61,055 bases of DNA from Saccostrea cucullata (lineage: Eukaryota): assembly GCF_032062105.1 (NCBI RefSeq), contig NW_026934374.1:1-61055 (forward strand), in the 5' to 3' direction. The position numbers and the translations under genes are program-made. Numbering within the stretch: position 1 is the stretch's first letter; each line of letters starts with the position of its first letter. The notes under the pieces are model-generated. The model saw only the letters and a list, made by a program, of their open reading frames with translations, did no database searches and was not told where the DNA came from. Shown piece by piece: positions 693 through 58,700 of the stretch.

Positions 693-824
693 AATGTGTT
701 GACGGTTACTATGGCCTGAATTGCAGTACTCAGTGTGGAAATTGTCATCAAGGACTTTGTAACAAGAATAATGGATCCTGCCAAACTGGTTGCAACTTGA
801 ACTGGAGAGAACCTCTCTGCCAAG
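693..824 (+). CDS. Gene A EGF cassette exon (132 nt)
   Basis: AG..GT bounded; ECVDGYYGLNCSTQCGNCHQGLCNKNNGSCQTGCNLNWREPLCQ. Confidence 0.9.
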
Positions 825-3800
825 GTAAGTTTTGCTTTATTATGGATAATATTAATTATTCTCGTATTTATATGTTTTCTAGCCAGCGGATTAGATTTGT
901 GCAACAAAAAGATATATTTAAGATCAAGAGAAGGAACATTTAAGTTGTAAGAAGTGATGTATAGGCACGTTAAAATTTGAAAAGGAAAATTAAAAAAGAA
1001 TAACTCTTCTAATTATAGAATGTGTTGACGGTTACTATGGACAGAATTGTAGTACTAGATGTGGTAATTGTCAAGAGGGATATTGTGACAAGACGACCGG
1101 AAGTTGTTTATCTGGTTGTAAACTGAATTGGAAAGAACCTCTTTGTCAAGGTAGATTTTGAACGTCAATACGAGCGATGTGTATTATTCTCGTATTTACA
1201 TTTTTTTTTGCTTGTGAGTTAGATATTTTAAACCAATAAGTATTACACATTAAAGAATGAAGGAAAAGTAAAAAAAAATGAAGAATACCAATTTATAGTG
1301 GGATTGATTGATTGATTGTATATTGTTTAACGTCCTCTCGAGAATTTTTCACTCATATGGAAACGTCACCGTATGCCGGTGAAGGGCTTTAAATTTTGAC
1401 CTTTACTCGGCACTCAGGCCATTGAGCAGTGAGAAATCTTTATCGTGCCAATGCCTGCCGCTGAGACGGGGCTTTCGATTTTAAGGTCTCATCCGAAGGA
1501 CCAGCAACTTTCACTTCAAACGGTTGAGCGATTTGTGAAGGAACAGTTCCTACCCATTTCTTTTCGACTTAGGTCAGTTGAGGCCGAGATTCGAACCCAC
1601 GACCTCCTGATCACGGAGCGAGCTCTCTACCGACTGAGCTAGTGGGAAAATGCACAAAAAGTATTTAAATTATCTATTGTGCTGACGGTTTCTATTGCCA
1701 GAAATGTAGTGCTAAATGTGAAATTTGTCTTGGATAATTATAGGGGAACAATAAATAATATTTTTGCGACTACTTCTACTACTAATTTTTATTATAGAAT
1801 GTGTTGACGGTTACTATGGACAGAATTGTAGTACTAAATGTGTTAATTGTCAAGAGGGATATTGTGACAAGAAGACAGGAAGTTGTTTATCTGGTTGTAA
1901 ACTGAATTGGAAAGAACCTTTTTGTCAGGGTAGATGTTAAAATTTATGTTCTACTATTATCTTCTTTCAAAATTGTCTACCATTTGTACATGTAATACTT
2001 TATACAAGGACATTTTTCTGCCCATCTCAATTTTGGACGCATTTTAAAGGGATCAAATTAAAAAAATATAGAATTGGTACTGGGCAACTTTAAAAGGGGG
2101 CAAAATTGTTTGCAAATGTAAATGTAAAAGGGCGAAAATAATACGAGGCGTTAACAACCATTTATACAGTTTATATTTCTAGCCGTAAGTGTAATATATA
2201 TGGAATAAATAACATAATAATACAAAATTAAAATAGAGGATACCGCCTCAGACATAATCCCCTTGACATTAAATACATTCAGATAATACAGAAACAAAAT
2301 AAAGGATACTATATCAAACATTTTTCCTTTACGCTCTTTCTACCACCCTGAACGAAAACATCTATGTACTAATAGGCTGGGAAAACAAGGACCCTAATGT
2401 AACTCTGGAATGACACCAGTTTCAACCATGCATCTTATTTTGTGAATTTTAAAACCCTGAAAATGTGTTTAAGGTGCTGCTGAAACATAAAGCGGGTCCT
2501 CTCCAGCTAATTTCACATGCCTTGCTCAGCACTAAAGCTGCAATTGGGTTGGGAATCTATTTACAGATAGACTTTTATTTTACCTTAATTGTATTGAAAG
2601 TTGAATATTTGTAAGAATCTTTTTTTAAGAACTCCTTTTTTTGTCATGCCTGAAAATGAATGTTTTATCAAAGCAGGAAGTATAGGTTTGAGTCTAAATA
2701 AACCGCAATTTCCCTTACTCTCAGCAAAGATAAAATACAAAAAGAAATATATCCATGTACCAAAATGCCCGTTACTAATTATTGGCTATATATGGTACTG
2801 TCACTATTTATTTATTTATCTTTTTAATTTCGAATATTAAAAGAGCTGACCTAGCAAGCTTTTTGTACTACTTAACATTTTGCTGATTAATAAATGGTTC
2901 AAGAAATCGGGGGTGTTTGGCATTTAAAAATGGTATAACCATGCTGCCATGTAAAATAGAGTTGATGATTTTCATAAACTGAATAGGTACATGTAAGATA
3001 CAAGACATATAAGACATTAAAACCTGTCCCACGGAGACCACTTTAGTGCATTTGGTCAATTGATAACTCTGAAATAAACCCTTAAAAACAATTTAGAGCA
3101 TGCCAGTAAAATATGTACAATTACTTTGCAATAAGAGCTAAAGCTGCCATATAACAAAATACAGGCTGTGCTTGGAGAGTTGTAAAATATAGATTGGTAT
3201 GATTAAATATCAACAAGCACTTTGTTGAATATCTTGTTCTTAAGCGTGAAAGTAAATCTGGTAAATGAATTCTTTAATGAGTCCAACAATTCAACAGCCA
3301 AAACAATTGAGAATAATTCCTGAGGGCAACATTGTAATACATTTTTTTTGGCCAATTAAGATCCATAAAACTTTCTATATATTTTTTTTTCTTTCAACAG
3401 ACAATAACCATTACCCAAGAATCAGCTGCATGTGGAGATGCATGTGTTTTGATATAACCTGTATATGTTCAAATAACCATCGTACTAAGATACAAACTAT
3501 TTGTTTAAATTTCATTGCATATGTATAGCTAGCTTTAATTTCTCCAATTTCTCCGGCAGCAATGTATATCCATTGCCACTGTGTCAAATTCAATTTAAAA
3601 AATTACCATCTTTGTAGCTGCCCATAAAGTTTTTTATCTAACACGAGTAACGCAGAGAAAATGTCCCTTGACTTTACCAATCCATTATAAGGCCACAGAA
3701 AATTTTTCAAAAATTAGCACAAGAAATGGACAACCCAAGTGCAAACCTTATCATAGAATATGAGACTTTCCTATTGAAAGCCCAGAAGTTCATGATCCTC

Positions 3801-6800
3801 TTTGTGACTTGGTATACATAACAAGCTGAATATTAAGCATCTATTTTGGCAAAAAGGCAACTTTCCCCATGGAGACAATAATATTTAAAGCATTATCCAG
3901 AATAAATCCAGAACAATTAATCATTACTTAGTATATATTTTTTAAATGAAAAGACTAGTGTTGTTTGAGTCTAAATTGAACATGTTCTTTCTTTTGAACA
4001 ATACCAGTTAGGGAAAATTAAAATTTTCAAAGGAGGGGGTGAAACAAAAAAGTCCAACAATTTTATGAACATAATCTTTTTCTGTACCGTGAAGCAATCA
4101 ATGACTGAGTTGTGTAAAGCGGACATGCGATACTAAGATTATCTGAAAGATATTGCACCCTGATGTAAATCAAATCCATACTTAAATTCTGAAACCAGAT
4201 ATAATAAATAATGACATTATGGTCCATTAATAATAAATATTTAAGGACATTAGGGATGATAGGGGTAAAAACACAACTGCATTACTTAAGGAATAATGGC
4301 AATTATTTGTGATTTGCAAATTGTTCCTACACTCTACACAAATGCATTGAAACTTGCAGTTTTCAGGTTTGCATATCCCTTCCCTAATATATGGCCAGAA
4401 AATTTCTATGAAGATTTGTCCCCCCCCCCTTTTTTTTGAAAGTCTTAGTCTAAACCTTGATCAAAAAGGGGAGGGGAAAAATGCTTTGTAGTTTCATCTC
4501 TAGATCTCAAATTGCCCATTAACCTTTTTTCAAGACATACCCATAACCTGTCTATAGATCCTAATTTGTACTACTACTTGTGAAAACACAAGTAACAAAA
4601 GGATAATATGCCTCACTCTACAAGGCAGAACTTGTCAAGACCTACGCCCATACTGGCTATGCCAACTACAGTGTCATAACAACACAACCTGACAATACTG
4701 CCTAAGCATACAAGCCAAGTCTTGCTAAAGTTTGTGTATAACCCAATCATGCAGGATATGTAAAATAAAAATGTCCAACCATATATAACATAATCATATG
4801 CTCACAAAAAGTAAAGGGTAAATCTTGTTATTAGTAAGGATATAAAATTTTATATAATATGTCAACTAAAATGTCTAAATAAACATCTTAACATGAGCAT
4901 AATGTGTGCATGACCCTACAGGGCAATATTCTTGCTAAGATGTTCAACCGTACAGATGTATTAAATAAAATGTCCAACCATACAGGACAACTCTATATAT
5001 CAACTATATAGAACAAATGAAAAGTTCTGTCTTCATATGCAGCAAGACCTGGATATATGACATTATTGGTATGTTCAACCACACCGAGCATCATTATGAT
5101 TAAATGTGTCCAACCGACTTTACCTTGGCATCTGATACACAGCATTAAATATATATATATATATAATTTTTACTTTATGTATATATATATCATATCCTAT
5201 AACATTCTGTGCAACCAAAAAGGGTAAAATATTGCCCAAAAACACAAGACCTAACTCAAGATACCAAACAATACAAAGATACAAATGGCCCAACAATATA
5301 GAGCATAACATCATGGCCCAAACCATATAGGGCTATAGAATAACTTGCCCAACCATATAGGGCATGACACCATGGCGCCCAACCATACTGCGATACATAT
5401 AGCCCAACCATATAGGACTATAGTATGGTGCCCAACCATATAGGGCACAACAACACCATAGCGCCCAACCATACTGGCATAAAAATAGCCCAACCATATA
5501 GGGCTATAGCATATTGCCCAACCATATAGGACATAGCACCATGGTGCCCAACGATACTGGGATACATATATCCCAACCATATAGGGTTATAGTATGGTGC
5601 TCAGCCATATAGGGCACAACAATACCATGGTGCCAAACCATACTAGATACATATAGCCCAACCATATAGGGTTATAGCATATTGCCCAACCATATAGGAC
5701 ACAACACCATGGTGTCCAACCATACTGGGATACACATAGCCCAACCATATAGGGCTATAGTATGGTGCCCAACCATATAGGGCACAACAACAACAAGGCG
5801 CCAAACCCATACTGAGATACATATAGCCCAACCATATAAGGTTATAGCATATTGCCCAAACATATAGGGCATAACACCATGGTGCCCAACCATACTGGGA
5901 TACATATAGCCCAACCATATAGGGCTATAGTATGCTGCCCAACCATATAGGGCACAACAACACCATGGCGCCAAACCATACTAAGATACATAAAGCCCAA
6001 CCATATAGGGCTATAGCATATTGTCCAACCATATAGGGCATAACAACACCATGGTGAAAAACCATAAATGGATACATATAGCTCAACGATATAGAGCTGT
6101 AGTATCTATAGCCCAACCATATAGAGCATATATAAATACCTGAATAGGTTTAATCCATGTAATTTACGGTATATATGCAACCAACCCCACGGCAAAATAA
6201 TGAAATCAAAATAAGCGACTGACTGTAATAGCTACATGATGAACAACAAGTGCAATTTACTCTGGCTACATGCATTTGCAGTGCTTAATTCTTAACATAT
6301 ACTGACAGGCCACAGGCTTTAATTCTTTAATGAAACCAAAAAACATTGAATGCACTTATAATCTACCCAAACTTCACCATATATTACACTAAATTGTTAT
6401 ATATCCAAACTGTCTGCCTGGTTTAGCATTAAAGAGCCTGTTTACTAACGACACCTTGACATTGCGCGATTCAGATTCTATAAAGAACCTGCCAGGTTTA
6501 CTTGGTGGTTTACAATGGAGATTTTGGTATGTTGACATTACACTATGCACTCAACAACCCCAGCTTTTTCTCAGCGAGTAAAACATTCTTAACCTAGGCG
6601 TGTAACTGAATATCTAGACTACACAAATCATTATAACCTGATTGTATATAAATACTAGCTCGGGTTTAATTTTATCAACTTCTGCAAGCCTAAAGAAAGT
6701 ATGTCAATTTAATGCAACCCGAATATCCTCTTTACATTACCTTCTCGCTGAGATATTCAGACAGAAATTGACATTCAACTGTTCTAACAAATCTGCAAAC

Positions 6801-9800
6801 GAACAATAAATAAATATCTTTGAATCGAAACACTATTCTGCCTGACTGAAACAATATAAATACTCACAACCAAGTAAAATTTGTAAACCACATTTTCGGA
6901 GCCAAAAGTTATTTTGATAAGGATAAGGCTTATAGCCGTAACTAAGGGGCTCTTATGTATAAAACCCTGAAAATCCCTTTGGGACCTATGGATTCACACA
7001 AATTGGTGATTAATAAAAATACGCAATTTTGTACGTATTTAGATCACATAAATTCCTTTATATACATAAATACACATAATACAAAATTAAAATTTTTATC
7101 CCAAAAATGTAGTACATCGGCAAATAATAGATACAAAATAAAATTATAGAATGTGGAGACGGTTTCTATGGCCTGAATTGCAGTACCCAGTGTGGAAATT
7201 GTAAAAATGGATTTTGTGACAAGAAAAACGGATCCTGCCAAACTGGTTGCAATTTAAACTGGAAAGAACCCCTCTGCCAAGGTAGATGTTTAATTTATCT
7301 TATAAATAGTGATGAGCATTATTAAATTATTATGATTTCTAACCAGTGAATACGAAATGTGTAACAAAAAGATAAATTAGATAAAGAAAAGAAAAATGTC
7401 AAGTTGTTAGAAGTGATGTATAGAATATTCAAAAAGAATAACTCTTCTAATTATAGAATGTGTTGACGGTTACTATGGCCAAAATTGTAGTACCAGATGT
7501 GGTAATTGTCGAGAGGGATATTGTGACAAGACGACCGAAAGTTGTTTGTCTGGTTGTAAACTGAATTGGAAAGAACCTCTTTGTCAAGGTTAATGTTGAA
7601 CGTCAATACGAGCTATGTGCATTATTCTCATATTTGCTTGCGAGTAAGATATTTCTAGCCAGCGAATAAGAAATGATTTTGTAACTATTAAATATTATGA
7701 TTTATAAGGAAGAAAATCTATTCTTTGTTAGAGGTGATGTACAGGCAATAAATGGAGAAAAATTTAATGTTGATAATAATTATTCCAATTATAGAATGTG
7801 TTGATGGTTTCTATGGCCAGAATTGTAGTACCCAGTGTGGAAATTGCCGAGAAGGAATCTGTGACAAGAAGACCGGAAGTTGTTTATCTGGCTGCCAATT
7901 AAACTGGAATGAACCTATGTGTCAAGGTAGATATTTAACGTCAAAAAGAGAGCAATATTTCTATGTTTTGCTTGTGAACTTGATGTTTCAAACTATTGGG
8001 TATTGCAATTGAAAAAAAATAATAAGGAAAAGGAATTTGTCTGAAAGAAATGATGGAAACCTATTCATGAGGACAAATTGAAGAATCATGCGTGAACAAT
8101 AAATAATAATAAAAACTATTTCAATTTTAGAATGTGTTGACGGTTACTATGACCAGAATTGTAACACCCAGTGTGGAAACTGTCGAGAGGGATTTTGTGA
8201 CAAGAGGACTGGAAGTTGTTTATCTGGTTGTAAACACAATTGGAAAGAACCTTTGTGTCAAGGTAAATATTTTACCTTAAAACGAACGAATAACATTATT
8301 CTCATATACTCAAGGTTTTTTGGCTTGTGAATAAGACGTTTCCAACTAATGGATGTAGCAAATTAATTAAGAAAAAAAATCTTTAATTTGAAAGGAATCA
8401 TGACTCCCAATCTATAATGCCCAAAAATCCCTTTCAATTACATAATGAGCTGACAGGTATTATGGCCAGAATTGTAGCAGGCAGTGTGATAATTGTCTAG
8501 AGGGACATTGTGACCCTAAAATCAGAAGTTGTATATTTTGATGTAAAATTAATCGGAAAGAACTTTGTGTCAAAGTAGATTTTTATCGCAAAATTAGTTT
8601 TGTGCATTATTCTCGTATTTACGAGTTTTCTTGCCTGTAACCACGATAGTTCTCTCATTAAGTTTTACAAATGAAAAGCAAACAAAGTCTTTTATGAGAA
8701 ATGATGTCTCCCAATTTTACAAGGAAATAATAAAAAATAATTATAAAAACTATTTCAATTATAGAATGTGTTGACGGTTACTTTGGCAAGAATTGTGGTG
8801 CTCGCTGTGGAAATTGTCTTGAAGGGTTTTGTGACAAGAAAAACGGAAGTTGTTTATCTGGCTGCAAATTAAATTGGAAAGAACCTTTGTGTCAAGGTAG
8901 ATGATAAAAATCATGATGTTCTATCCTTTTTTTAAATGTCTACACTTTGTTATCTTTATTTCTAATATATTGGGTGTTTTCAGCGTGGTGCTTACCTTGT
9001 CTTATTCAAGCGGTTTGGTAGTTATAAGTAGTGAAATTTTTAAACTACAAAAATTTCAATCGCTAAAGTTTCACCTTTCATTGTCCCTATGAAATACAAG
9101 AAAATTGACTTGATTTAATCAGTCTATTGTATAAGGAATTTAACCCTCATCTGGAATTGTAATCTGTAGTTATAAGGTATTATCTATTAATAAACTAAAC
9201 TTTCTTATCATAACAAGATGTCAAAAACTGGTATTACTATAGCATTAATAGAATAAGTAGACGGCTATAAATATTCAGAAACCGTTGCCTTGGTTCAATA
9301 ATAATGCATATATGCTGATAAGTTTCATCAAATTACCATTATAAAATTCTTTACATAGAATGTGTTGATGGAAATTATCACATGGACTGCAGCAGACAGT
9401 GTGGTCATTGTCTTACCGGAGTTTGTGATAAGACTAATGGAGCCTGTTTGAATGGATGTTCACCAAACTGGCAGGAACCTTTGTGTCGAGGTATGATTTA
9501 ACTATTAATTCAGATACATTTCATAAATGATGCTTCTTAAAATTAGAAGGAAAAGTTCTCCTTATATACTTTATATATACAGTAACGCATGACATCAACT
9601 GTTATGTTTAAAATGAAAACCTTAATGTTTATAAATATATTTGCTTGGGTTTTCGTTTTGGTCTTACTTTCAAATTAAAATTAGCTTAGCCTGAACGTGC
9701 TTTTCAATAGTCTTAACAAAGATACTTTAAGGAAAAAAAAACTTAAGAATACCTGAGAGATGTTTAAATTACGATGGAATCTCTGGCCAGAAGTGATACA

Positions 9801-11228
9801 AAGGAGATAGCATTATTTCAATTAATTTTAGGGTCGATATGATAACTTTGTTAAGAAAGACAAGCTATCAATGGGTATGTTTTTGACAGGGATAAATATA
9901 ACTTCTTTGAGCTGTTTTTATACCAAATTTGACTACGAAATACAGTGCGAGTATTCCTTGTACTAGTATCCATACTTATTTAAGACCCGGGACGAATGAG
10001 GTGATTCAAAGGAGAAAAAAACTTATCTTATGTACCTTATCAGGTAAATGCTACATTAATAACAGAGAAGTCATTTTAATTATCACAAGTGTTTTTTAAT
10101 GTTCTCAGTTTCATCTGCATTTCCCATTTAGAATGTGCTGATGGATCTTTTGGTGAAAGTTGCAATATACGGTGTGGAAATTGCATCCAAGGACTGTGTG
10201 ACAAGAGAAATGGAACCTGCATGATAGGCTGTTTTCCGGATTGGGAGGGACCTATGTGTCAGGGCAAGTTTTTAGTTTTATAAAAATTTCTTATTGGTAC
10301 TACATAACGATAAATTATTTTGGTTAGTTACTTTTAAATGTGAGATTTGCAGATAATAAAAACTTTAATTTTCATTGTTTCTATGTTTGCGTCAGACTTT
10401 CTTGTGTAATGTATTTTGTCATCTACATTTATTTCAGTTTTCAATTCATTATCATTGCCAAAAATATAATCAAAATAGATGTTAGGAAAGTCTTCAAAAA
10501 AAAACTTTCATGTTTTCTCATATCATCTTTTTTTTGTAAATTAACTGTGTGTGTTTATGAAATCAAATGATCACCAACCAGAGTAAGAAGATAGCAAAAA
10601 CAAACAAATAAAAACAAGACTCCGCACAAAAAAAATCTTTATTTTACTGAGTTTGAGATAAATTAGAAATATCTTATTTGTTTATGGGTAAAGAATGACA
10701 TCTAAGGACTTCACGAGTCACAGATTTCATTGAACGAATTCTATCTTGAAGTTGTATAATAAAAAATATAATTTTATTTTAGTTCTTACTACAAGAGAAC
10801 CACAAACGGGTGGTAAGTAGTTCGGGAATTCAAATTTTTACTTGTAAATTATACATGTTTTCTCAGACTTTTCATAAGGGATACAATTTACATTCTGGCC
10901 CGATTTGTTTTTTTTTTGTTCTTCAGATGAGGAGTTTTCCAAAACTTCCGTGGTCGTTATTTCTGTTATATCAACTCTTATTGGAGTATTACATTTGGGT
11001 GCGTTGATCATAGTCATATATATCAAGAGAACAAGATGCCTGTCACAGAATAACAGAGATCATAGCAACAATGACCAAATGTCGCGCAAGGATACAGAGC
11101 AGAAGTATGCTGAGTTAACAGGCGGAAAAGAAGATCACCATTATACGACCATTGATTCTACTTACAAGGAATCAGAATATCAGGAAATACATACTTATAA
11201 TAATACTGGATTTAACAAGGTCATGTGA
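693..11228 (+). CDS. Gene A: MEGF10/11- or SCARF-like multiple-EGF type-I membrane receptor (5'-partial, spliced)
   Basis: Exons 693-824, 1019-1150, 1798-1929, 7150-7281, 7457-7588, 7795-7926, 8131-8262, 8765-8896, 9359-9490, 10132-10263, 10783-10812, 10927-11228 join in frame (all phase 1); 10 repeats of 44 aa with 8 Cys, then TM and a Tyr-motif tail ending at TGA 11226-11228. Confidence 0.88.
1019..1150 (+). CDS. Gene A EGF cassette exon (132 nt)
   Basis: AG..GT; ECVDGYYGQNCSTRCGNCQEGYCDKTTGSCLSGCKLNWKEPLCQ. Confidence 0.9.
1304..1639 (-). mobile_element. tRNA-derived SINE, copy 1
   Basis: Reverse complement of the SINE at 35482-35830; A/B-box head, (ATCA)n tail; flanked by direct repeat TAGTGGGA (1296-1303 / 1640-1647). 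Confidence 0.9.
1676..1737 (+). pseudogene. Decayed 5' half of an EGF cassette exon
   Basis: tgtgctgacggtttctattgccagaaatgtagtgctaaatgtgaaatttgtcttggataa = CADGFYCQKCSAKCEICLG*; no AG acceptor; truncated. Confidence 0.7.
1798..1929 (+). CDS. Gene A EGF cassette exon (132 nt)
   Basis: AG..GT; ECVDGYYGQNCSTKCVNCQEGYCDKKTGSCLSGCKLNWKEPFCQ. Confidence 0.88.
1998..2169. mobile_element. Short degraded TA-type MITE
   Basis: Imperfect ends ctttatac.../...ttatacag with internal gggcgaaa-like subrepeats; interrupts intron sequence that aligns with ~550-590. Confidence 0.4.
5285..6128. repeat. Higher-order minisatellite (CCCAACCATA core, ~169-bp period)
   Basis: Marker TAGTATGG/CTG at 5421, 5590, 5758, 5928 (periods 169, 168, 170); each period has six CCAACCATA subunits. 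Confidence 0.9.
7150..7281 (+). CDS. Gene A EGF cassette exon (132 nt)
   Basis: AG..GT; ECGDGFYGLNCSTQCGNCKNGFCDKKNGSCQTGCNLNWKEPLCQ. Confidence 0.9.
7457..7588 (+). CDS. Gene A EGF cassette exon (132 nt)
   Basis: AG..GT; ECVDGYYGQNCSTRCGNCREGYCDKTTESCLSGCKLNWKEPLCQ. Confidence 0.9.
7795..7926 (+). CDS. Gene A EGF cassette exon (132 nt)
   Basis: AG..GT; ECVDGFYGQNCSTQCGNCREGICDKKTGSCLSGCQLNWNEPMCQ. Confidence 0.9.
8131..8262 (+). CDS. Gene A EGF cassette exon (132 nt)
   Basis: AG..GT; ECVDGYYDQNCNTQCGNCREGFCDKRTGSCLSGCKHNWKEPLCQ. Confidence 0.9.
8444..8574 (+). pseudogene. Full-length pseudo-exon (EGF cassette)
   Basis: 131 nt; acceptor AG>AT; first Cys TGT>TGA, second in-frame TGA, 1-nt deletion; GT donor retained. 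Confidence 0.85.
8765..8896 (+). CDS. Gene A EGF cassette exon (132 nt)
   Basis: AG..GT; ECVDGYFGKNCGARCGNCLEGFCDKKNGSCLSGCKLNWKEPLCQ. Confidence 0.9.
9359..9490 (+). CDS. Gene A EGF cassette exon (132 nt)
   Basis: AG..GT; ECVDGNYHMDCSRQCGHCLTGVCDKTNGACLNGCSPNWQEPLCR. Confidence 0.9.
10132..10263 (+). CDS. Gene A last EGF cassette exon (132 nt, GC donor)
   Basis: AG acceptor; ECADGSFGESCNIRCGNCIQGLCDKRNGTCMIGCFPDWEGPMCQ; donor G|GCAAGT. Confidence 0.82.
10783..10812 (+). CDS. Gene A 30-nt juxtamembrane microexon
   Basis: ttttattttag|TTCTTACT...GGTG|gtaagt; phase 1-1; VLTTREPQTG. Confidence 0.7.
10927..11228 (+). CDS. Gene A terminal exon: TM helix plus Tyr-motif cytoplasmic tail
   Basis: Strong polypyrimidine acceptor; VVVISVISTLIGVLHLGALIIVIYI then KR stop-transfer; YAEL, YTTI, YQEI, YNNTGF; AATAAA at ~11323. 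Confidence 0.88.
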
Positions 11229-14634: not shown

Positions 14635-14671
14635 CGAATGACGCCTTATATTTTATTCAAAATACAGGACA

Positions 14672-20552: not shown

Positions 20553-20583
<31 letters not shown>

Positions 20584-44500: not shown

Positions 44501-47500
44501 ATTACAGAATGTGCTGATGGATACTATGATCAGAACTGCAGAACCCATTGTGGAAATTGTCTCAAAGGATTTTGTGACAAGATAAATGGATCTTGTCAAT
44601 CTGGTTGCAAAGGAAACTGGAATGAACCATTATGCCAAGGTAAACATTAAACACTGAGAGGCAACAATTCTTATTTATGTAATGAGCCAAATGCATAATT
44701 CGGTCAATTACTCCCCATAATGTACACGCAGGTATGTTAAGGTTACAACCAAATTTTCTACTTGTCTATATGATATGACGTCATAGTAAGCTATATGACG
44801 TGAAGTTTAGAGATAAGAATTTCTTCAATCGATATCTAAAATTGGTTTGAGGTTGTAAAAATGGATCAAAATATGCAAAGGCATAATATAAACGGAATTT
44901 TAGTCGTTTCTAGGCCCCTGTAGTTATCACAGGGGTTAAATACTAAACCATAACTGTTTATCATGCAGTAGCATAGTGAAAGTAAAACGTAACGAGAATT
45001 CATGTAAAAAAAAACCACAAGAGATCGGAGTTTAAAGGATGTAGAATGAATATCATCTCTGATTCATATGTGAATAAAGCTTACGAATGAGGTATGCTTA
45101 TATAATTCTACAATTTCTTCGTAAAATTAAAGCAGGCATGGTGTTTGCTTGCCGATCAGCCTTTCCTCTGTCGTTCGTAACAAAAAAGATGCAAAAGTTT
45201 AACACTACGCCGCATACTTTGAAACTTAATTTTGGTTTCTATCTAAAGTTCTTATTCTATTGTTTTTGGAAAGTGCTGCTAGAATCGTATGGTTTACGGG
45301 AATTGATGCATTTTTTCCGATGTTATGAACAGAATGTAAAATTTTTTAGAAGGTTTCGTCCTAAAGTGATGAATAATTATTTCTTTGATAGGATAGTAGG
45401 ATTCTAGCAGCACTTTTCGTGGTACAGAGATCTTTTTACATAACAATTATTGCAAATTGAAATTAATTATCCCCGGGGTAGTGTTGAACTTTTCACTTTT
45501 TCATTAAGGCATTTTTTCTAATTGTAGACGTCACGTGGTGACGTCGTGGTTAAGTGCGTCCTGTAGTAGAAGTCCCATTGAAGTCTATAGAATGCATAAT
45601 TATAGCAAAAATTGTATCCTTGACTTTTCCGAAGTATTAGTGTTACAAAATTATAAAAAAGTTTTAATTCGTCGAATTCTGTTCCATGTGCTGCCTTAAT
45701 CAACCCGCGCAAGCTTCAAAAAACACAGTATGATGTATCACAAATTGTCAGACTTCTTAAAAAATTAATAACAGTTATATTTTTCTTTCACTTCTTTCCA
45801 TTATCTCTAAGACATAAAAAACAAAGAAAAAGTCTTGGAATTTTTATACTTAAATAGATTGCAGAAGCTGAATCTGTCATAAAATGATTTTTTTAAATTG
45901 TCTCTTGTTTATGACAGGAGACAAGCTTTAGCTCAATCGGTAGAGCGTTCGCTCCGTGATCGGGAGGTCGTGAATTCGCATCTCGGCCGCGACTGACCTA
46001 GTCGTTAAAATGGATAGCAACTGTTTCTTCGCCATGCGCTCTGCACTTTGAAGTGAAAGTTGCGGATCCTTCGGATGAGACTTTAAAAACCGAGGCCCCG
46101 TGTCAGCGGCAGCCGTTGACACGATAGAGATCCCTCACTGCTCAATGGCCCTGAGTGCCGAGTAAAGGTCAAAATTTGAAGCCCTTCACCGACATACGGT
46201 AACATTTGCATAGGAGTGAAAATTCTCGAGAGGGACGTTAAACAATATACAATTAATCAATAAATCCATCCCAACATAGAGGAATTACAAGGCTTTTCAA
46301 ACAATTATAGGATAACTATTGCAATATTTTGAACGATTTTCAAAGTTGGATCGTTGATCATAGGTTACCTCTTTTCTTCCTTACATGAACATTTTGAAGT
46401 ATTTACGTTCATCTAATTGTGATATCGATAAAAAGCTGACTGATGACTTTTTAGTAACCTTTTTATAAAATATACCTTTTCAGAAACGCGTTTACGTTTT
46501 AGTGTTCAACTGTTTTGTGTACATTGTTGACGACTAGCTGACGGCGAAATAGATATCTCGTATTAGAACAAATGAAATTGACATCCTGAGTTTCATTAAT
46601 ATTCGAAGAAAAAAATCGAATTTATTTTTTCATGTACGTATAATCACAAAGACAAAATTTTAGCTTGATATGATTATGTATCAATGAAAATAATGGTGAT
46701 GATTTCATCGTCAGTACGTGAATATTTTATGTATTTTTTTTAATGAAACAAATTTCATTATGACAATTAAGGCGTGTAATTTGTTAAATTGACATCAATC
46801 AGTATTTTCAAAAATACATGTTTTGACTTAATGTTCATTGAATTCAGACATTGACTAGACATTTATTTCTTATTGTATTATACACGACACAATATTTTTC
46901 GAACATTTGGTGTAATTAATGAAAACATATATTAAGGTAAAACAGTTTTACACATATTGAATATATTTATTTATTGATTTTTTTTAAAATTATCATTTTT
47001 TCAGAATGCGTTGATGGATTTTATGACGAGGAATGCGGAACAATGTGTGGGCACTGTCTTACAGGAGTGTGTGACAAGACAAATGGAACTTGTACGAGTG
47101 GATGTTCACTAAACTGGCAGGATCCTTTGTGTCAAGGTAAAAGAGCAAGGGCCACTTAGGGCCTTTCTCACGTCGCAAATCACGGCCGAAATGTACGATC
47201 CTCTCCCATTCCGGTCGTGGTTGCATGAGACGAGATTTTCTCGTAGCTCATTAAAGTATTGACCAATGCGAGTAAAGTGTAGTCGGAAATTGACCTTTCA
47301 GGCGACCTTTCAATACCCAATCGCAGTTAACGAAATAGTTGTTGTATACTGCTGATGTCAGTTGTTGATTTCAATTGCGATGGAAACAAAATCTGTCATT
47401 GACTAAATATGACGTCACAATAGAGAGGCGTGAATTTTCAAGATTACGACACTTTTTGTGATCAAGCAGCCACGGGTAAGAGAGAGCTATATGCGGACTC

Positions 47501-50500
47501 CGGACCGTGGCCTGAGACGATGGGCCTTTCCTGGCTCTGAGAACTTCTGAAAAATCAGAATTTTTAATTTAGGTTGAAATTGTGGTATTTATCACTTAGA
47601 CTGTTTGTGACTATGTTTGTATTGTACATGGCCTGATTTCCCGTCTAGTCAATGCACAAATTGAGTCATTTTTTCCAAATCCTGTAAAACATTTAAAAAT
47701 GGCCTAACGTTGAAGCAATATTTCAATATTTTATAATATGCAATTAAATAATGAAATATTTTTTTCTGAAGATTGACAAGCATGTTTTAATTTTTGGATC
47801 GTAGTCTATGCACATATTTTGATTCTTTGCTGAATGTAGTCAAATACGTATGTTTTATGCAAAATTAAAGAACATTGCATTTTCTCAAAGCCTGTTTTCC
47901 TATGCTTAAATTCTCAAAAAAGATTTTTTTAATATAGGTAATGAAAGCACTGTCTACTTTATTTTGATATATGAAATGGGAAAGTGGGTGATAGTTTATT
48001 AATTGACGTAAGGACAGGATCATTTTTAAATGAACGTTAACCTAGCTCTTTTATTTTACTTGTCCTAAACCTCAACCTTAACGTAAAGTTTTATTTCTTT
48101 TTAAATATTAACATACATTTAATAATATTAATAAACAATTATTAATAAATAAATAATAATAATTAGTGATAAATGTACTGTATATTTAACTAAAATATCA
48201 TTCAGCAATTGTCACTCGATCTTTACTTATTATCTCCTATATTTGTAAGCTAACATATTCTTTTATAAGTTAAAATACGTTCAACAATGCGATTAATTGT
48301 GATAAACCAATAGCCTAATCACGAATTCAATACAGTTGTGCACGGAATAACAAATCAAGATAGCGCTTACTAACTGTTGTATATGGAACAACGTAAGGTG
48401 CTTTTGGAGTAAATTTTATAATTTTAGAATGTATTGACGGATTTTATAACCAGAATTGCAGTAATCAGTGTGGTAATTGCCAAAGTGAATTTTGTGATAA
48501 GAAAAATGGAAGCTGTATAAATGGTTGCAAAACGAACTGGAAGGAACCTCTATGTCAAGGTAAAAAATGTGTCCTACTCTCGGGTTAGAAATATTCCAAT
48601 AATGTTTTATATTTATAGCACAGTTATAGCAATAAGTACTTTGATAGATGAAATTCCATCGAATCAAAGGAATAAGAATGACTGGTGTTTAGCAAGGTCT
48701 TATTATGTGTGATTTGCCGTCCGCTTTATCAAGAGTTTATCCAAACATTTAGACAATTATTCGTTTTAAGAATTGCCAACTGATTTTACATTTTAAGTTA
48801 AGTATATATCAGTAAAACATCTGCATTGTTAGAAAAAGGTTTTAAAGTAATCCTTGAAACATTATGATCTTTTCTGTTTGAAGAAATGACTAACATTCAT
48901 AATTTCATATGGGACCTGATCCCATCTCTGATGTTTTTGTGATCCGTGTTTGCTCTGCTCCTATTTTGTATTATTTCATGGACTTTTGATCCTGAAAACT
49001 GTTTCTTATCTCCATATGTTTCATCTTCATATGTTCCATTTTTACAAATTCGCTCCAATGTTTAGAATGTAGTGACGGAATGTATGACCAGAACTGCAGT
49101 ACCAAATGTGGACATTGTCTAGAAGGATTTTGTGACAAGAGAAATGGAAACTGCCTTACTGGTTGTAAATTGAACTGGAAAGAGCCCCTCTGTAAAGGTT
49201 AATGTTTTAAGTTATAATAAGCGATGTGCATTATTGTGAATAAGTTAGATATATGTGTTATTATTCAGAAAAATATGCAAAGAGAAAAAAATGAAGTTGT
49301 TTATCTGGTTTTAAACTGAACTGGATTAAACCTTTACGTCAAGGTAGAAACGTGAATTATCACAGCAGACGTATTGTTTGTGTATTTATATTTTACGCTA
49401 GGTTTCCTATGTAGTAAATATTTGATCATATCAAAATAGATCTTCTACCATTTTGATTTGATTGTGAATGTTGCAATGGGTATATTTGCAATCTGGTTGA
49501 TTTTCTAGCTTAAATACTATTGTCTTTATATTTTGCCTCCGTAAAATGTAATGTAAATCCAGATCATTCTTATTTTTGGGGTAAATATATTTGAGATCTC
49601 GGACATCTTTATCTTAGACTGCAAGCGTCTCAGATGTAGCAAAAGTCATCATATATAGGGTTTCCAAAGTATGTTACATTTAATATTTATCTAATACTCG
49701 TTCTACACAAAGTCTTCAACAATATCATTTTGAAACAGTGCAATAATTGTATCCTATGGGTTGACTTTTAGTCTTTCATTTGCTTTTATCCAGGATTAAT
49801 GCTTAATTATCTCTATTATTGGCTAAAATTAATTGTTATTCATGAAATGTGTCTCTAGACCGTAAAACGAGAATAATTGGCGCACTACTGATTTTAGCGC
49901 CTTTGAAGTCCCTTGACCGTACTCTAATGAAAAAAAAATCAAAATTAGTGATAACTTTTTTCTTCTGAATAACATATGATAAGGTGTTCACTTTAAACAA
50001 AATATGCCAAGTAAAGGGCATCTCACCTATAAAACACGAAAACAGGGGAATTTACAACTAAATAATTTTTTACAGATCACTAAAAATTTTATTTTAAACC
50101 TACCAACCTGGAAATATTCACATACTCTAGTATTATATATAAGAAAATCGTTATACGGAATATGTAATAATATATTAAAGTCCATTCTACAAGAGCTAAA
50201 AACTGTCTTTTCCCAGTTTCTAAAATCTACATATAGAGCTACTTCTTAGATTTCTCTTACATCTATCTTAAATGAAATGCATATTTTCTGTTAGATATTA
50301 TTTTAACATCATAATATATTATATTTCATAATTTAGAGTGTGTTGACGGATTTTATGACGGGGAGTGCAATAAACATTGTGGACAATGTCTTCGAGGAGT
50401 TTGTGATAAGACAGCTGGGACTTGTATGAGTGGATGCTCACCAAACTGGCAGGAACCTTTGTGTCAAGGTAAGGTTTTATTTCTCTGTACATATGAAAGG

Positions 50501-52412
50501 ATAGTGATATGAAGTTGGCATAACAAATACTCTTGAGTTTCTGATTAACAATATCTGTGTGGTTTTTGGAGACCAGGTCTTCAAACTATCTATTTTAATC
50601 CCCAATGCCACCTATTGCCCCCCGTTTTGAGCAGACCTATTTTTGCAATATTATGAAGTAGAATTCGCGCAACATCTTATGCGTGAGAAGGAGCAACACT
50701 TGCTGTTGCCTTTAACTCGACTTATAGATATATCGAGGACGTATTGTCAATTGGCAATTGTAAGTTCCATTATTTTGTCGATACGATATTCATGTATCCT
50801 GGAGAGCTTGTGATAAAGGATACCACAGAGTCTGACACATCTCTTTCATATTTGGATAATTTACCTGAAAAAGACTGAAATGTAATCTAACAAATATGTT
50901 CTCTGATAAAAATGATTACCTTTACTTTTCTAACGTCATCTTCCCTTCGCAGTACAGTTAAGGTGCGCAATGGAAATATCGACTAAATTTTGTATTGAAA
51001 AATCTATTCGAATTCGTAATCGGGATTGCGATTATTTTTAGCACATTATTTATATCGGATAATTGTAATTATGATTAATAACTACATATTAAGGACGATT
51101 ATATTTTATATTAAGACTAGTCACGTAATGCTGCAGTCACGCGATTTTAGCACATTGGCTTGAAGTATTGATGTTACTTGGCATAACCAAGTTAAATTTC
51201 CAAGTTTAGCATATAAATATTTTCAAAACGCATTGTAGTTTCTAAAAAGTGCTGTGATCCTGTCTAAATTCTGCAATTTCATTGTTAAAATTATACATGT
51301 ATGCCCGAATGCTATATTTTTTGCTGGTCAGCGGCATGAAATATTATTTTAATTAAATTGTTTTAAAGATTTCATCAGAATCGCAGCACTTTTCAGATAC
51401 CTTAATAGTTCTATAGTTGAAATGTAAAAGCTTACTTTGATCCATAGAGTGTATGCCCTTGCACTAGATCGATTTATTAAGACCCCCCATATTACCCTCC
51501 GATGTACTTTCATACAAATATACGGCAGTGTCAATAGAATACGTAATGAACAGAAAATATATTAATAAGAATACATATTTTGTTGAGAAAATATTACTTG
51601 ATCAGTCTCTCACTGCATACAAACTACGTCACGTTGAAAGAAATGACGCCATATTGACAAGTGTATTGCGATCAGTGCATTGTTTATAACTTGTTATGTG
51701 GAATTTAACCTAAGACAAAACAACATGCTTTAGTAAGTTTTTATGTAGTTTGATGATTTCTTACTGGTTAAATTAGCAGATAAACTCATTTTGTGGTATT
51801 ATAGAGAAATGTTGTATGACGTATATTGTGTATGATGTCGTAGTCAAGTTTTCCCGTACAAATTAGGCTCCGCCTCCTTTTTGTAACCTTAACTGTGCTG
51901 CGTTACTTATACAGCATCTTCATTTCTCAATCGATTGCATGCAGATTGTATATATCTCAGTTGACTCGATACGCACGAACATGCTATACATATGAACACT
52001 TTCTTAAACGACATAGATTATTGACAAACAAGTTGATAAAACAAAAATATAAGCAGTCTCGATGAAAGGCATCATTTTGTAAGTTCTATAATCGATACAA
52101 TGACCTTGTCAGAAAAAAAAGAATTCATCATTATGGATTTTTCCGTCATTTCCTGATCATGACAAGGAGTACACAAGGCGGATGTGACTGTTCAGCAGGG
52201 GATGCTCACTCCTTCATAACACCTGATCCCACCTCTAATGTTTTTGAGGTCCGTGTTTGCTCTGCTCCTATCATGTATTTTTAGGTCACCTGAGTAAACT
52301 CGGGTGACCTATTGCCATCTGTTTTCGTCCGTCGTCGTTCGTCGTTCGTCGTGCGTCGTTCGTCGTGTGTTAACATTTGAACATTTTCAGCTTCTTCTCT
52401 GCAACCACTGAA

Positions 52413-52443
<31 letters not shown>

Positions 52444-52689
52444 TATGGGTAAGGGGGGAACAAAAATTGTGAATTTCATGATCCCTGCCCCCCTGGGGCC
52501 TGAGGGGTGGGGCCAAAACCACTAAAATTAATGCAATCTTTAAAAATCTTCTTCTTTACTCCTGGACATCAAGCATTCAAACTGTTTGCATGATTGTAAT
52601 CAGCATTGAGTCCTCTACCCAAATTGTGAAATTCATGGCCCTGGGACAGGGGTACTTGTGCTAGGGTGGGGCTAAATAAGTATATAGTG

Positions 52690-52723
<34 letters not shown>

Positions 52724-55700
52724 GCTCCTGAGTATTAAATAAACTTATTACGCAGTACAGTTAAGGCAACACATGAAAAAATATGGTAATGAGGTCATAA
52801 TGAGGTCTGACGTCATGACAGTTGCCCCATCCTGATTGATCCATATAAGGAAATGGTGCTCAAAATAACTATTTACTGATATTTGCAAGACTATGTAATA
52901 AACAGCAATATTTTCATGATTAAATTGAAAATAATTAGTGATTTTCTCATATATTAAATAGCATGTCTTTAAAATAATTCTCTTTTTACTGTGTCGTTTG
53001 TCTGCATTCGGCTTCAGCCAATCGCTTGCACTCGGTGATACGGAATGTTGTTTACATCTAAAAAGCGTGGCGACATCAGCTGAGATTTGCAGTGGATTTA
53101 AATGCAATAACCACACAATCTTTAAAGAAAATTTGGATAAGATAAGAGACAAGGCGTTGCTTCTCCCTTTTATGAGAATATGAGGACATTACTTCAGAAA
53201 ATGTCAGAAAACAGAGACGATTTGCACCAGCTCCGTAGATCCATCACTGTAATATTCCAGGCCAGGTATGTATGAGCATATGTAGGTACATGTATAGATC
53301 TACAATATGTATTCATGCTTTTATCAACATCAAAGAAAAACCCCGAGTGTGTGTGTGTCCATTTAGATGTATTATTTATAACAGTCAGTGAAAAATTGCA
53401 ATGCATTGCCTTGTGTGTACCCCCCCCCCTACTAAGTTGCACACTTTATGACTTTTTAGAATTATTAAAATTAAACTGCACTAAATATGTACTCAGTTCT
53501 TGTCAATCAACTCATTTTCTTTGAGACAATATGTGTAGTAATGGAGGTCATCAATAACACAAATTTAAACTAAATTAAATGAAATGTTTTCATTGTTTCA
53601 GTCAATGATCCACTAGTGACTAGGCCTAAACAAGCAATGATCATGTCTTTTGACATACTAACATGCTACACAATTCAAAAAAAATTTATCAGTGTCATTA
53701 TGTTGAAAACATAGAACCTCAACTGGTTGTAATTTTCTAGAATTTTTAAATTAATGAAAAAAAAATATTCATTTTTTTTTTGTTTAGATAACATGTACAT
53801 TAAAAATATTTGTATAATACTTTTATCATTGTAGCTGTCCAGAGTTTCAGGCTTAAAGAACATGGAGAATGAATAAATAAAAAATGTATCATTTCTCCAC
53901 AGGGTATGTATACTTCTAATTAAAATTTCACATATTTAGAGTATGCATGTGCTTTTTTTTCATCTTGGTAATGGTGAAACTAAGATTTTGTTTAGAAAAT
54001 ATTCTATCAATAACTGTAGTAAATGTCAGAGGTTTCACTTTCCCAGAGAAGTTTTGCAACACAATGTTTTTGCCATTTATATGAATAACAAATTCACTAC
54101 AGTATACAATGTAGCATAATTTGCATTGTCAAATGTAATGCCATTTAATTCGACAATGTATATTTAGTAATCTCATAGCATATAAATGCATACTTTATAT
54201 ATTGTGTTGTAGGCCTAGCTATTCCCAAATGTTGGACTAATGGATTCATTCAGGCAGCAAGTTAATCCATCATTTAAGGAAACTGGTATGCTCAATATTA
54301 GCTATAAACCATACAATATTCCTGGCAAGATTATTGAATTGTTTTGATAATAATTAAAAACTAACAGAAGAATTGAAAACATGTATATGCATTCTCTGTT
54401 AAATTTTTAATGCATTTTTTTATTTCACTTTTTTAAAAACAAACTACTTTCAATAATGGTATTTCCTGATTTTTCTCATATTTTCAGAATTCATTTTATC
54501 CACAAGAACATGAGGTGATGGAAATAATTTACACCTCCCCTTCATTCCTAGTCTGTCATTGGATTTGTAAAGAAATGTTTATTAAATAAATTTTCTAGAA
54601 ATAATAATTTGACTTTTTCATATATTTACTATACAGGTGTTGAAAGGCTATTAAGATTTGAAAATCTTACATATTGCATACATATTTTGTGTGGAGGGTA
54701 CTGATGTCCATCAAGATCTTATTTCCAACATGTACATTGTGTTCATTTATTTTTCAATAATATTACCAAAAACAGGAGACAAAAGACCCCCCTAATTGAT
54801 TCAAAATAGGATAGGGGACCACCTTTTGATTCTGAGGGAAGGGGGGGGTGGCAAGTTTTTCCAAGTCAGATTTTTTTCATTTTCATGTCAATGAAGGACA
54901 GATTAATATTTCCGATCAACAAGATGAAGGACAGATTAATTATTTATTTTTCTCATTGAAAAGTCTAACAAGATAAAAAAAAAAAATTAAAAACTCTGAT
55001 ACCTGAAAGGGCGAGATCACTGATCTTCAAGTATTTATTTCTAAAATCTGCCAACCCCTCCCCCTCATGATCTCGTATGCAGAAAGAAAAGAAAAATTAT
55101 TAACACAAGTGTGTGTACCATAGGCGTCGGAAGCAAAATGAAAGGGGAGCTATTTGAGAGGGGGAGGTAAAACCAACAGAGAAAGGTAAATTCCAGTGCC
55201 TACATTATGTAATCTATATAATTTGCAAATAAGTAGCTATAGGTAGGCTAAGCCCCCCCCCCCCCCCCCCCGGTTCCGACGCCTATGCGTACATTAGTGA
55301 GAGAGGGGTATATATACGTATTTAATTAATTTCTTATTAATGGAGGAAGCTATATTTTAATTAACCATTTGTTTTCTACACGAATATAGCAGCAATAATT
55401 AGACCTATGTGTGTGTAATACTATAATTCTTTGAGGAAATGCGGGAGGTTTGAAAGACGTCTTTTACCATACTGTAAATGTGTACAATGTATCGAGAACG
55501 AATACACAAAATAGAAAGAAATGTCAAAAATTTTATGCATACCGTTTTGATTTAGTTAAAAAAAGAGTCCAGCCCTGTCCGCATGTATATTTATTAAAAT
55601 TTACGAGGTAAACAAACTATAGCAAGTACTCAAGAGTTATCTCCCATGCTGGGTCAATGATGCGTTTGAAAACTATAATTAGATTGACTCTTTCAAGATT

Positions 55701-58700
55701 TCAATTCTTAATCAAAAAGTGCAAGGGCAAGGCGACAATTTAAAAAGTAGGTTTTTATTTTAAATTATTTATATTATTGTGTAGTTTTCAAAAAGTGATG
55801 CTCATTTCTTTGTAATCTTTTTGTTAATTTATAATTCACGATGAAATTAGGAAAATATCCAATTTTTCATACAATCTTGTCTGTTTAAGCTGAATAACTT
55901 AATTATATCGGAAAACTAACTGAATGAGCATCACTTTTGAGAAAGTATAGATACATAGGGACAACATAAAACATTTTGCAGTTAATTTTTTGCTTGCCTT
56001 GCCCTTGCACTTTTTGGTTAATTTTGACATGTCATTTTTTGACCTAAAATTGGAACCCACGTGACCTCAGGGGGTCACATGATGTCAAAAAATACCGATG
56101 TGAAAAGCGATGGACATACTCTTCAAGATAACAAATAGCTATTTTAACTAGAGTGTCTTCAAAAAAAAATAAAACTGTTATGCATAAAATGATTCGGATT
56201 CCTTGAGTTTTTATAGAAAATGTTGCCTTAACTGTACTGCGTAAGTACATAGTTATGATGAGCAAGAGTGCCTCTACTAAAATTGTGAATTTTATGGCCC
56301 CAGGGTCAGGGGTTCTTGTGTTAGGGCGGGGCTCTATTGATTATATAGAGAAAATACATGAATTCTTTGAAAATCTTCTTCTTTGCTTCTGGGTATTTAA
56401 TAAAGTACATAGTTATGATGGGCAAGTTATGATGGGGCGGCGCTCTATTGATTATACAGTGAAAATATATGAATTCTTTGAAAATCGTCTTCTCTGCTCC
56501 TAGATTTTATATAAACTAACTAAGTACATAGTTATGATGAGCAAGAGTGCTTCTACCAAAATTGTGAATATCATGGCCCCAGGGTCAGAGGTTCTGGTGT
56601 TAGGGGGGGGGCTATATTGATTATACATGTATAGTGAAAAATAACATGAATTCTTTGAAAATCTTCTTCTTTGCTCCTGGGTATTAAATAAACTAACTAA
56701 GTACATAGTTATGATTAGCAAGAGTGCCTCTACCAAAATTATGAATTTTATGGCCCCAAGGTCAGGGGTTCTTGTGTTAAGGGCGGGGCTCTATTGATTA
56801 TATAGAGAAAATACATGAATTCTTTGAAAATCTTCTTTGCTCCTGGGAATTAAATAAACTAACCAAGTACATAGTTATGATGAGCAAGAGTGCCTCTACC
56901 AAAATTATGAATTTTTTGGCCCCAGGGTCAGGGGTTCTGGTGTTAGGGCGGGGCTCTATTGATTATATAGTGAAAAAACATGAATTCTTTGATAATCTTC
57001 TTCTCTGCTCCTAGATTTTATATAAACTAACTAAGTACATAGTTATGATGAGCAAGAGTGCCTCTACCAAAATTGTGAATATTATGGCCCCAGGGTCAGG
57101 GGTTCTTGTGTTGATTATACATGTACAGTGAAAAAAACATCAAATCTTTGAATATTTTCTTCTTTGTACTTAGGTTTTAAGTAGATGAACTACCTACATA
57201 GTTATGAGCAAGGGCCCTAATCTTCAAGAATTGTAAATTTCAAGGCCCCACGGTCACTTGTACATAGGGGGGGGGGGGGGCTGTACTTATATATTGAAAA
57301 TGAATGAATTGTTTGAAATGTGCTCCTTTGTATTAATCAAATATTTTTGAAAAGCATGAATGCCTTTCCAAAAATTGTACAATGTGTGGATCTAGGCCTA
57401 AGAGTCCAGGGTTCATGTGTGGTAGTGGTACTACTCATTATTGCTGAATATTACTGATTTGTTGAAATGCATTTTTTGTTCCCCTACCCTGCCTATGGGT
57501 ATTAAGTAACCAAACTAAGGACCTGCTATAGCATCTGGCTTAAAACATGGATCAAATTCAATCACTTGAAAGTTGTTGAATAATGCTCAGGTGACCTATA
57601 AGGCCCATGGGCCTCTTGTCTTTATGGACTTTTGGTCTTGAATGAACATATGAAGATAAAGAAAATCATTCAAGCTTGCTTGTTAGATTACCATATGATT
57701 GTCTTTTTCAATTAAAATATCAAAGCATGAAACAGTTGTGTCAGACTCTTGAATATAATGTTCCTTATGTCCACATTTTTCATTCAATAGATTGCATGAA
57801 TGATGATTAATAACTGAACATTTTTATTAATTGGGGTAAAACATTGCTTACAATATTTAGCTTAAGTGAACCCTTTGATACTTTGATGCATTATGGAATT
57901 TTTTTTTTACCCTTAAGAAAAATGCTAAAATTTAGCGTAGTAAATTTTAGTGTTTTCTCATTAGGTATCAAATGCTTTTTAAAAAATATTTATGCACATT
58001 AGCAATAGAAAATACTGAGTTAAGTCATTTTTATAACATTTGAAGAGTGTACTAACGGATCTTATGGCAAAAACTGCAGCACACAGTGTGAAAATTGTCT
58101 TGGAGATTTTTGTGACAAGGAAAATGGAACCTGTTTGACTGGTTGCAAAACAAACTGGCATGGACCCTTATGTCAAGGTAAAATATTGAAAAGCATGTCT
58201 TTATGCATTATTCGAAGATATAAAAGATATTGTTTCTACCCTTGAATGAAATTTGATTATTCTTCTTCACTGATAATCATATTCGACTAGATTAAAAAAA
58301 TAACTCTGCAGGATTATTACTTATTGAGCGAAAATTGACATTTCATCGCCAACTGTAGTCTGTATTGTTTCCCTTAAAATAATAAGAGAAAGTATTATTC
58401 CATATATAAAATGATTGAAGCTGACCAAAATGCAAACTTAATAAAAAACTCAAAAAACATTAACAAGTGCAAAAATAGGTTCAGTTTCAGCTCAGTTAAG
58501 GAAAAAAATAAGGGAAAATAATCGGAAATATAATTTAATCAAAACATTGAAATGACATCATTTTATTTTAAAAAATACAAAGTAGCTCGACAGGGAAACT
58601 TCATCTGTACTTATAATAGTCATTTCCAGAGTTCGCGATCTTGAGCTCGCACTCGTACATGGATATATAAGGATCTCTAGGGATGCGTGTCTAGACATAA

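Follow-up and report, generated by a model that had tools for sequence, protein, structure and literature searches.

In this study, we examined contig NW_026934374.1 of Saccostrea cucullata (RefSeq assembly GCF_032062105.1, here G000), a stretch of 61,055 nt that was analysed as a whole contig (G000:C16511) and is called the window. Judged from sequence comparison, we consider it fairly probable that this locus holds two tandem oyster receptor genes which share the design of a lectin-fold head on a stalk of epidermal growth factor (EGF) repeats and differ at the cytoplasmic end, gene A carrying ITAMs (immunoreceptor tyrosine-based activation motifs), gene B likely carrying protein tyrosine phosphatase (PTP) domains, and that the two would form an activating and damping pair. 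The head of gene A and the tail of gene B fall outside the window.

Two tandem genes and their cytoplasmic ends

A preliminary description of this DNA had reported twenty interchangeable 132-nt phase 1-1 exons that form one modular stalk, from which any subset could be spliced in frame. The exons themselves were recovered in full: a scan for exons that are open, rich in Cys and bounded by AG and GT gave 19 of 132 nt, and a DNA profile search added the twentieth (10132-10263) and four broken remnants, with nhmmer E values for the cassettes of 1e-28 to 1e-48, far beyond chance. Each of the 20 intact cassettes has 132 nt, phase 1-1, eight cysteines and no stop codon, all 20 lie within the reported span and match the reported start and end patterns, and the donor is GT in 19 of them and GC in the one at 10132-10263. 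The single stalk was not borne out. The cassettes split ten and ten over two genes, both on the forward strand, because the two sets are parted by a stop codon at 11226-11228, by poly(A) signals and by the start of a new gene, with its signal-peptide exon (14672-14735) and lectin head, and the freedom to combine subsets applies within each ten.

The ten intact cassettes of gene A occupy 693-10263 (starts 693, 1019, 1798, 7150, 7457, 7795, 8131, 8765, 9359 and 10132); the 5' end of the gene precedes the contig start, and its clean cassette count is at least 10. They are followed by a 30-nt phase 1-1 linker exon (10783-10812), with a homologous peptide in the S. echinata RefSeq proteins P0001 and P0002, and by the last coding exon (10927-11228), which holds the membrane segment, a 67-residue tail and the stop codon, the joined exon model being open for 550 residues up to that stop. 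The tail has the form YAEL-x8-YTTI-x8-YQEI, its -3 residues are acidic, and it contains the ITAM pattern D/ExxYxxL/I x(6-12) YxxL/I twice, in overlapping form, according to the definitions in the accessible parts of PMC6994640 and bioRxiv 10.1101/2022.03.04.482883. Among 20,000 shuffled tails, one ITAM match occurred in 9 and two in none. The triple motif Y-x11-Y-x11-Y, with both spacers of 8, was complete in 14 of the 21 short tails examined, covering Saccostrea, Crassostrea and Magallana (three of the 14 have Met or Val at one position), and the remaining short tails keep two motifs or show a different spacing. Cross-genus tail alignment scores exceeded all 2,000 shuffles in seven of ten pairs; the alignment of the Ostrea tail did not exceed all shuffles. 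The idea that the ITAM tail is a truncated PTP juxtamembrane region was rejected, as no similarity was detected (231-935 of 1,000 shuffles scored as high).

Some further features of gene A and its relatives were noticed. Its membrane/tail exon has 20 matches in the genome, and sister subfamilies with 135-nt cassettes (on contigs C5989, C16271, C15950 and others) retain the triple-tyrosine tail. The GC donor on the last cassette is kept in three A-type genes (window 10264, C13234:20508 and C18885:8841). The RefSeq protein P0004 joins this GC-donor last cassette to a different short exon and has no membrane segment, which hints at a soluble form or a mis-annotation.

Gene B starts with the signal-peptide exon (14672-14735), followed by two phase 1-1 lectin-fold head exons of 237 nt (24930-25166) and 258 nt (34338-34595), two EGF exons of 138 nt each (34790-34927 and 38644-38781), ten intact 132-nt cassettes within 40857-58177 (starts 40857, 41169, 41477, 41756, 44508, 47005, 48428, 49066, 50337 and 58046), a membrane-segment exon of phase 1-2 (60270-60375) and a first cytoplasmic exon (61005-61055), which the end of the contig cuts short; the joined model is open for 770 residues, to the contig end. 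The membrane exon is homologous to that of phosphatase-bearing paralogues, 13 of 16 residues encoded by the cut exon are identical to the phosphatase paralogue P0011, and paralogues with a gene B-type membrane exon continue into PTP exons on C10004, C6927 and C9432. Because the membrane exon and the next exon lead to tandem PTP domains in these three paralogues, gene B likely ends in tandem phosphatase domains. P0011 has two Y_phosphatase domains, the first of which (D1) displays WPD and HCSAGxGRTG, its KNRY loop being KNRF. Within 14784-22789, the first intron of gene B harbours a non-LTR retrotransposon that looks intact, with ORF1 at 15314-16195, an open ORF2 of 1259 residues at 16662-20441, poly(A) near 20557-20582 and a short target duplication; it sits in one arm of an element whose inverted repeats are 95.5% identical. 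Introns of the window also hold arrays of tandem repeats at 5288-6130, 29056-30056 and 56242-57330, and paralogous loci share the second and third of these.

With regard to the head, a profile of 30 family proteins matches the F-type lectin FBP32 (E 2.6e-11) and the EGF repeats of Tie2 (E 5e-10). An AlphaFold model of the paralogue P0004, with a mean pLDDT of 84.6, superposes on fucolectin and CBM32 folds at an rmsd of about 3 A, and overall resembles netrin/laminin LN-LE chains; a phmmer search of P0004 against the PDB gave no match. Two F-type lectin motifs were taken from the accessible part of PMC5712786, the cation motif hhDGx and the fucose motif HX24RXDX4(R/K), and the former is present as AVDGD in head exon 1 of gene B. 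With a signal peptide, a head, a series of 8-Cys EGF repeats and a single membrane segment, gene B fits the build of the mollusc GBD/F-lectin-MEGF receptors, which occur with or without PTP.

Paralogous loci and ectodomain exchange between tail classes

Eight other contigs of the assembly with close cassette matches were examined, and the S. cucullata RefSeq proteins translate exactly from the contigs examined. Clean 132-nt cassettes number at least 10 in gene A and 10 in gene B of the window, 5 and 9 in the A and B genes of C13234, 6 and 6 on C18885, 6 on C10004 (plus a 7-Cys exon used by RefSeq), at least 6 on C6927, 3 on C246, 3 on C19710, at least 2 on C902 and 2 on C9432. Cassette number therefore differs between paralogues. 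Five genes end in a gene A-type tail and five bear a gene B-type membrane exon, three of the latter reaching PTP exons in the DNA examined, and the tandem order of A and then B is found in the window and on C13234. No near-identical second haplotype of gene A or B was detected in the assembly, the best non-self matches being 75-89% identical. We treated C13234 as a paralogue because its synonymous divergence from the window is 0.18-0.27 and its intron identity about 80%, and it may be a hyper-divergent allele. A single gene with two alternative tails was rejected for these loci, as neither an ITAM-tail exon inside the B genes nor PTP motifs after the A genes were seen in the stretches examined. 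The RefSeq protein P0005 (C13234, 7411-27461) joins the signal exon of gene A to the head of gene B over a 20-kb intron and also omits the GC-donor cassette, and gene B on C13234 has a signal exon of its own at 27222; P0005 reflects either read-through splicing across the A-B pair or an annotation artefact.

If the two types of tail predate the genera, heads would be expected to group by tail, and the observed heads do not. In a tree of 37 heads, which cluster largely by genus, the tail label needs 10 changes, and 138 of 500 label shuffles were as low. A clade of ITAM-tail heads was rejected by the approximately unbiased (AU) test (p-AU 1.4e-5) on 28 rows, the nine omitted rows being two from gastropods, two Saccostrea on long branches, two Magallana that lack the motif, two whose tail is unknown and one duplicate. 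The head of the Saccostrea phosphatase has 70-75% identity with ITAM-tail heads of its own genus and 47-55% with phosphatase heads of Crassostrea and Magallana, and the Saccostrea phosphatase D1 is 66-72% identical to that of the other genera. The nearest neighbour of the head changes exon by exon, and in a pairwise homoplasy index (PHI)-type test of five head exons from six genes with 139 informative sites, none of 1,000 permutations was as low.

The cassettes were compared in the same manner. Mean identity within the window is 0.731 between A and B cassettes, 0.750 among A and 0.727 among B, and the closest A-B pair, at 8131 and 41169, is 90.9% identical. Over 55 related cassettes, identity to the other class is lowest, at 0.73, for last cassettes and stands at 0.84 for distal ones from rank 4 onward (rho 0.39, p=0.0035). 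The pattern is one of mosaic heads and membrane-distal cassettes across the tail classes, with a last cassette that stays with its tail. At the sequence level we find linked genes, similar ectodomains, old opposite tails and post-speciation homogenisation restricted to the ectodomain (incomplete for cassettes), all of them features of paired receptors. A Magallana gigas RefSeq phosphatase and a Logan protein are 99% alike in membrane segment and tail, with an ectodomain identity of 46-88% per 50 residues; such near-identical phosphatase tails under divergent ectodomains, in P0023, P0090 and P0110 (Magallana gigas and Logan), reflect either very divergent alleles or head swapping.

Cassette turnover, exon skipping and rival explanations

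Stalk length likely varies mainly by copying of DNA. Cassettes are born by duplication of exon plus intron and lost by decay of splice sites: window positions 597-1197 and 7053-7635 share 80% identity, a block of two cassettes duplicated together with introns, and the four broken copies consist of a 3' third (452-506), a 5' part without acceptor AG (about 1678-1733), a cassette with lost acceptor and an in-frame TGA (8446-8575) and a further remnant (49293-49348), the last two with a broken copy at the same slot on C13234. Unequal crossing-over and gene conversion in such near-identical, frame-neutral cassettes could alter stalk length and keep the outer parts of both classes alike. The cassettes are under purifying selection, with a dN/dS of 0.23 over all pairs and of 0.28-0.30 against their positional partners on C13234; head exons gave 0.31 and 0.47. 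Frame safety is the ordinary build of this family, because in the gene models all ectodomain exons that follow the signal exon are of phase 1-1 and a multiple of three nucleotides long, and the arrays of sister subfamilies consist uniformly of 135-nt cassettes. The earlier caution that symmetric exons are a normal product of tandem duplication was well placed, and exon symmetry alone is ordinary.

It had also been proposed that each exon carries the last two cysteines of one 8-Cys module and the first six of the next, with skipping giving hybrid modules. The Pfam EGF_laminin match on the paralogue P0004 (247-293) does cross an exon border, at 278; the hybrid module is a question of register, because the standard disulfide pairing of 8-Cys EGF repeats (1-3, 2-4, 5-6, 7-8) puts all four disulfides inside one exon. 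Single-exon Pfam scans gave zero matches for cassettes or head exons.

The claim of weak acceptors at 7150, 41169, 41477 and 58046 survives in part. The share of pyrimidines at -18 to -4 is 0.60 for the 20 cassettes versus 0.66 for 49 other acceptors (p=0.049), the comparison sites coming from five paralogous RefSeq models, in which copies are related and not independent and the donors include some last-cassette donors. The acceptor at 7150 is poor (0.33) and cassettes are slightly weaker overall, whereas those at 41169 (0.53), 41477 (0.60) and 58046 (0.67) are not poor, and AAG acceptors, with 3 of 20 cassettes versus 8 of 49 others, are no rarer in cassettes than at other sites. On the donor side, G at +5 is found in 4 of 20 cassette donors versus 31 of 49 others, GC donors number 6 among 68 cassettes, and the overall donor score is not lower in cassettes (p=0.12).

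The figures for +5 G and for GC donors are among the points that speak for combinatorial splicing as the main source of diversity, in which many of the 2^10 stalk variants per gene would be made and the cassettes themselves would alter reach or ligand binding, as in oyster bindin or CD97. So do the skip models, four distinct ones, of the paralogue on C10004, where five RefSeq models (XP_062613944-8) hold 7, 6, 6, 6 and 5 cassettes, dropping cassette 2, 3, 1 or 2+3 with all else identical. Simple mis-mapping is disfavoured for them, since the dropped cassettes differ by 5-12 nt in the first or last 40 nt. Of 28 pairs of isoforms or clusters compared from other molluscs, 9 are set apart by entire modules of 44-90 residues and show no more than one mismatch besides, and the Crassostrea virginica proteins P0013 and P0016 are identical apart from a 229-residue block of five modules. 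However, the skipped cassettes are only the three head-proximal ones (3 of 7), 159-181 nt apart, the donor score is not lowered, and RefSeq isoforms are automatic models, for which an allele without the exon or mis-placed short reads would yield the same junction. We therefore hold splicing as the main source to be improbable, and regard a modest contribution of exon skipping to stalk length as probable from the RefSeq models of this paralogue, the skipping of closely spaced distal cassettes perhaps adding a few length isoforms per gene. The likeness to Dscam, loosely drawn in the preliminary description, has to be given up. Mutually exclusive choice of one cassette per mRNA for cell identity would suit exons that lie in tandem, are nearly identical and vary at positions between fixed cysteines, but the models of P0011, P0004 and P0005 string 6-8 cassettes in series, those of C10004 5-7, and the longest C10004 model contains all of them. 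In a crude test for docking and selector pairing in gene B only (12-mers, upstream intron against nine pre-acceptor regions), the best complement reached two of nine introns, with 1-2 in shuffles, and introns are at least 147 nt long. This choice is largely refuted by the multi-cassette models and now has next to no probability. Isoform pairs of the same length in M. gigas and C. virginica, considered as mutually exclusive EGF exons, were rejected as such, as they differ in the last PTP exon and not in cassettes; within P0023/P0091 and P0105/P0032 the only difference is the last phosphatase exon, which suggests that terminal exons were duplicated.

Under a rival reading, ordinary birth and death has expanded a scavenger-receptor-F-like family, with constitutive exons, neutral drift of stalk length and tails of unrelated function, and with mosaic heads as a by-product of tandem arrangement. 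The uniformly 1-1 ectodomain exons, the uniform 135-nt sister arrays, the four dead cassettes, the only slightly weaker acceptors and bulk selection that is purifying, not positive, in cassettes and heads agree with it. It is less easily reconciled with both tail classes standing side by side in three genera, with the exactly kept ITAM spacing, with exchange that spares the last cassette and the tail, and with RefSeq skip models that recur in several species, and on balance we consider it unlikely. Several points weigh against the activating and damping pair as well. The PTP exons of gene B are off the contig, a search for a contig continuing gene B found none, and no RefSeq protein from the window contig appeared in the protein searches made. 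The head of gene A is likewise off the contig, and the A-B head comparison relies on paralogues. With 94/99, the clade of Saccostrea heads falls barely short of the starred level of support, and the AU test followed the inspection of the first tree and had nine rows omitted, the tail labels having been set before that tree. Cassettes do cluster by tail class (10 changes versus 22 when shuffled, 0 of 500 shuffles as low), which means that homogenisation is incomplete. The fucose motif does not occur, the family profile and gene B both having Ile where FBP32 has its fucose-binding His; as far as its motifs indicate, the gene B head has the F-type fold and is not a canonical fucolectin. Finally, identity between the heads of the two classes reaches only about 70-77%, and because this is below the classic paired receptors, a shared ligand is not implied.

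If the two genes do form an activating and damping pair, a ligand would cluster receptor A, Src-type kinases would phosphorylate its ITAMs and Syk would bind, and receptor B could bring its own phosphatase to the same ligand and damp the signal, stalk length setting the reach and specificity lying mainly in the head. Oyster ITAM-Syk signalling has been reported, CgIgR binding Syk (PMC6994640, as far as accessible). According to the accessible part of PMC13070813, dozens of draper-like genes and over 40 RPTP genes are active in C. virginica haemocytes; the family member LOC111115605 is among those detected there, with a row in the granulocyte/agranulocyte table, which has none for five other identifiers. 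A bolder proposal, which we offer tentatively and rate as doubtful, is that ITAM receptor and phosphatase-bearing receptor draw on one pool of lectin-fold ectodomains, with the EGF array as a recombination hinge that swaps heads and resets stalk length, and with skipping that tunes partner height, giving a size-based, kinetic-segregation-like switch in an invertebrate, in a build not described in vertebrates.

Comparison with known receptor systems

Should the pairing prove true, a mollusc receptor family tied to parasite resistance in snails would gain a signalling logic, on by ITAM and off by built-in phosphatase, and paired receptors that evolve by homogenisation of their ectodomains would be known from molluscs too. 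Cassette number would also be an easy PCR marker for the genetics of disease resistance in oysters, and differences in stalk length between partners would allow size-based phosphatase exclusion to be tested directly in animals other than vertebrates. A literature search, which left most subscription journals outside, found no paper that treats ITAM/PTP pairing or the skipping of cassettes in this family of oyster receptors.

The closest build is that of the snail GBD-MEGF receptors, which exist with and without tandem PTP and in which loss of EGF between haplotypes has been linked to schistosome resistance (PMC12297450, PMC13712769, both accessible in part). The Biomphalaria SudRes1 GBD-MEGF phosphatases (PMC12297450) and the LG5R subgroups 1B/1C (PMC13712769) share with the oyster genes the galactose-binding/fucolectin head, the EGF repeats, one membrane segment, presence or absence of tandem PTP and clustered paralogues, a likeness of build. 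In the accessible portions of these texts the term ITAM has 0 matches, short tails are described as signature-free, and neither pairing nor ectodomain exchange across tails was seen.

Other systems resemble single parts of the locus, each within the accessible part of its source. Oyster bindin (PMC5712786) diversifies likewise by repeat number, recombination and alternative splicing and has the F-type lectin fold, but it repeats the lectin domain itself, whereas here a membrane receptor bears a single head on a spacer of EGF repeats. CD97/ADGRE5 (PMC9101421) shares the skipping of whole EGF exons, leading to 3-5 repeats with distinct binding; it differs as a GPCR with the calcium-binding EGF type, three isoforms and no paired tail. 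CgIgR (PMC6994640) and Hydractinia Alr (bioRxiv 10.1101/2022.03.04.482883) are single-pass ITAM receptors of invertebrates, with overlapping ITAMs in Alr, and differ by immunoglobulin (Ig) ectodomains and the lack of a phosphatase-bearing twin. The Tie2 EGF repeats and laminin-type EGF (PDB 2gy5; PF00053) align with the 8-Cys repeat at the E value given above, a likeness at the level of fold only.

In vertebrates, ectodomain-restricted homogenisation defines the paired receptors (PMC3210942, again accessible in part). Like the oyster genes, the paired opposing receptors KLRC, Ly49 and PIR described there have old opposite tails, ectodomains homogenised after speciation and tandem genes; Siglec-11/16 and CEACAM are reported to be further examples. 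The vertebrate receptors differ by other folds and by immunoreceptor tyrosine-based inhibition motifs (ITIMs), while the oyster damping partner would carry PTP domains of its own, under ectodomains of lower identity.

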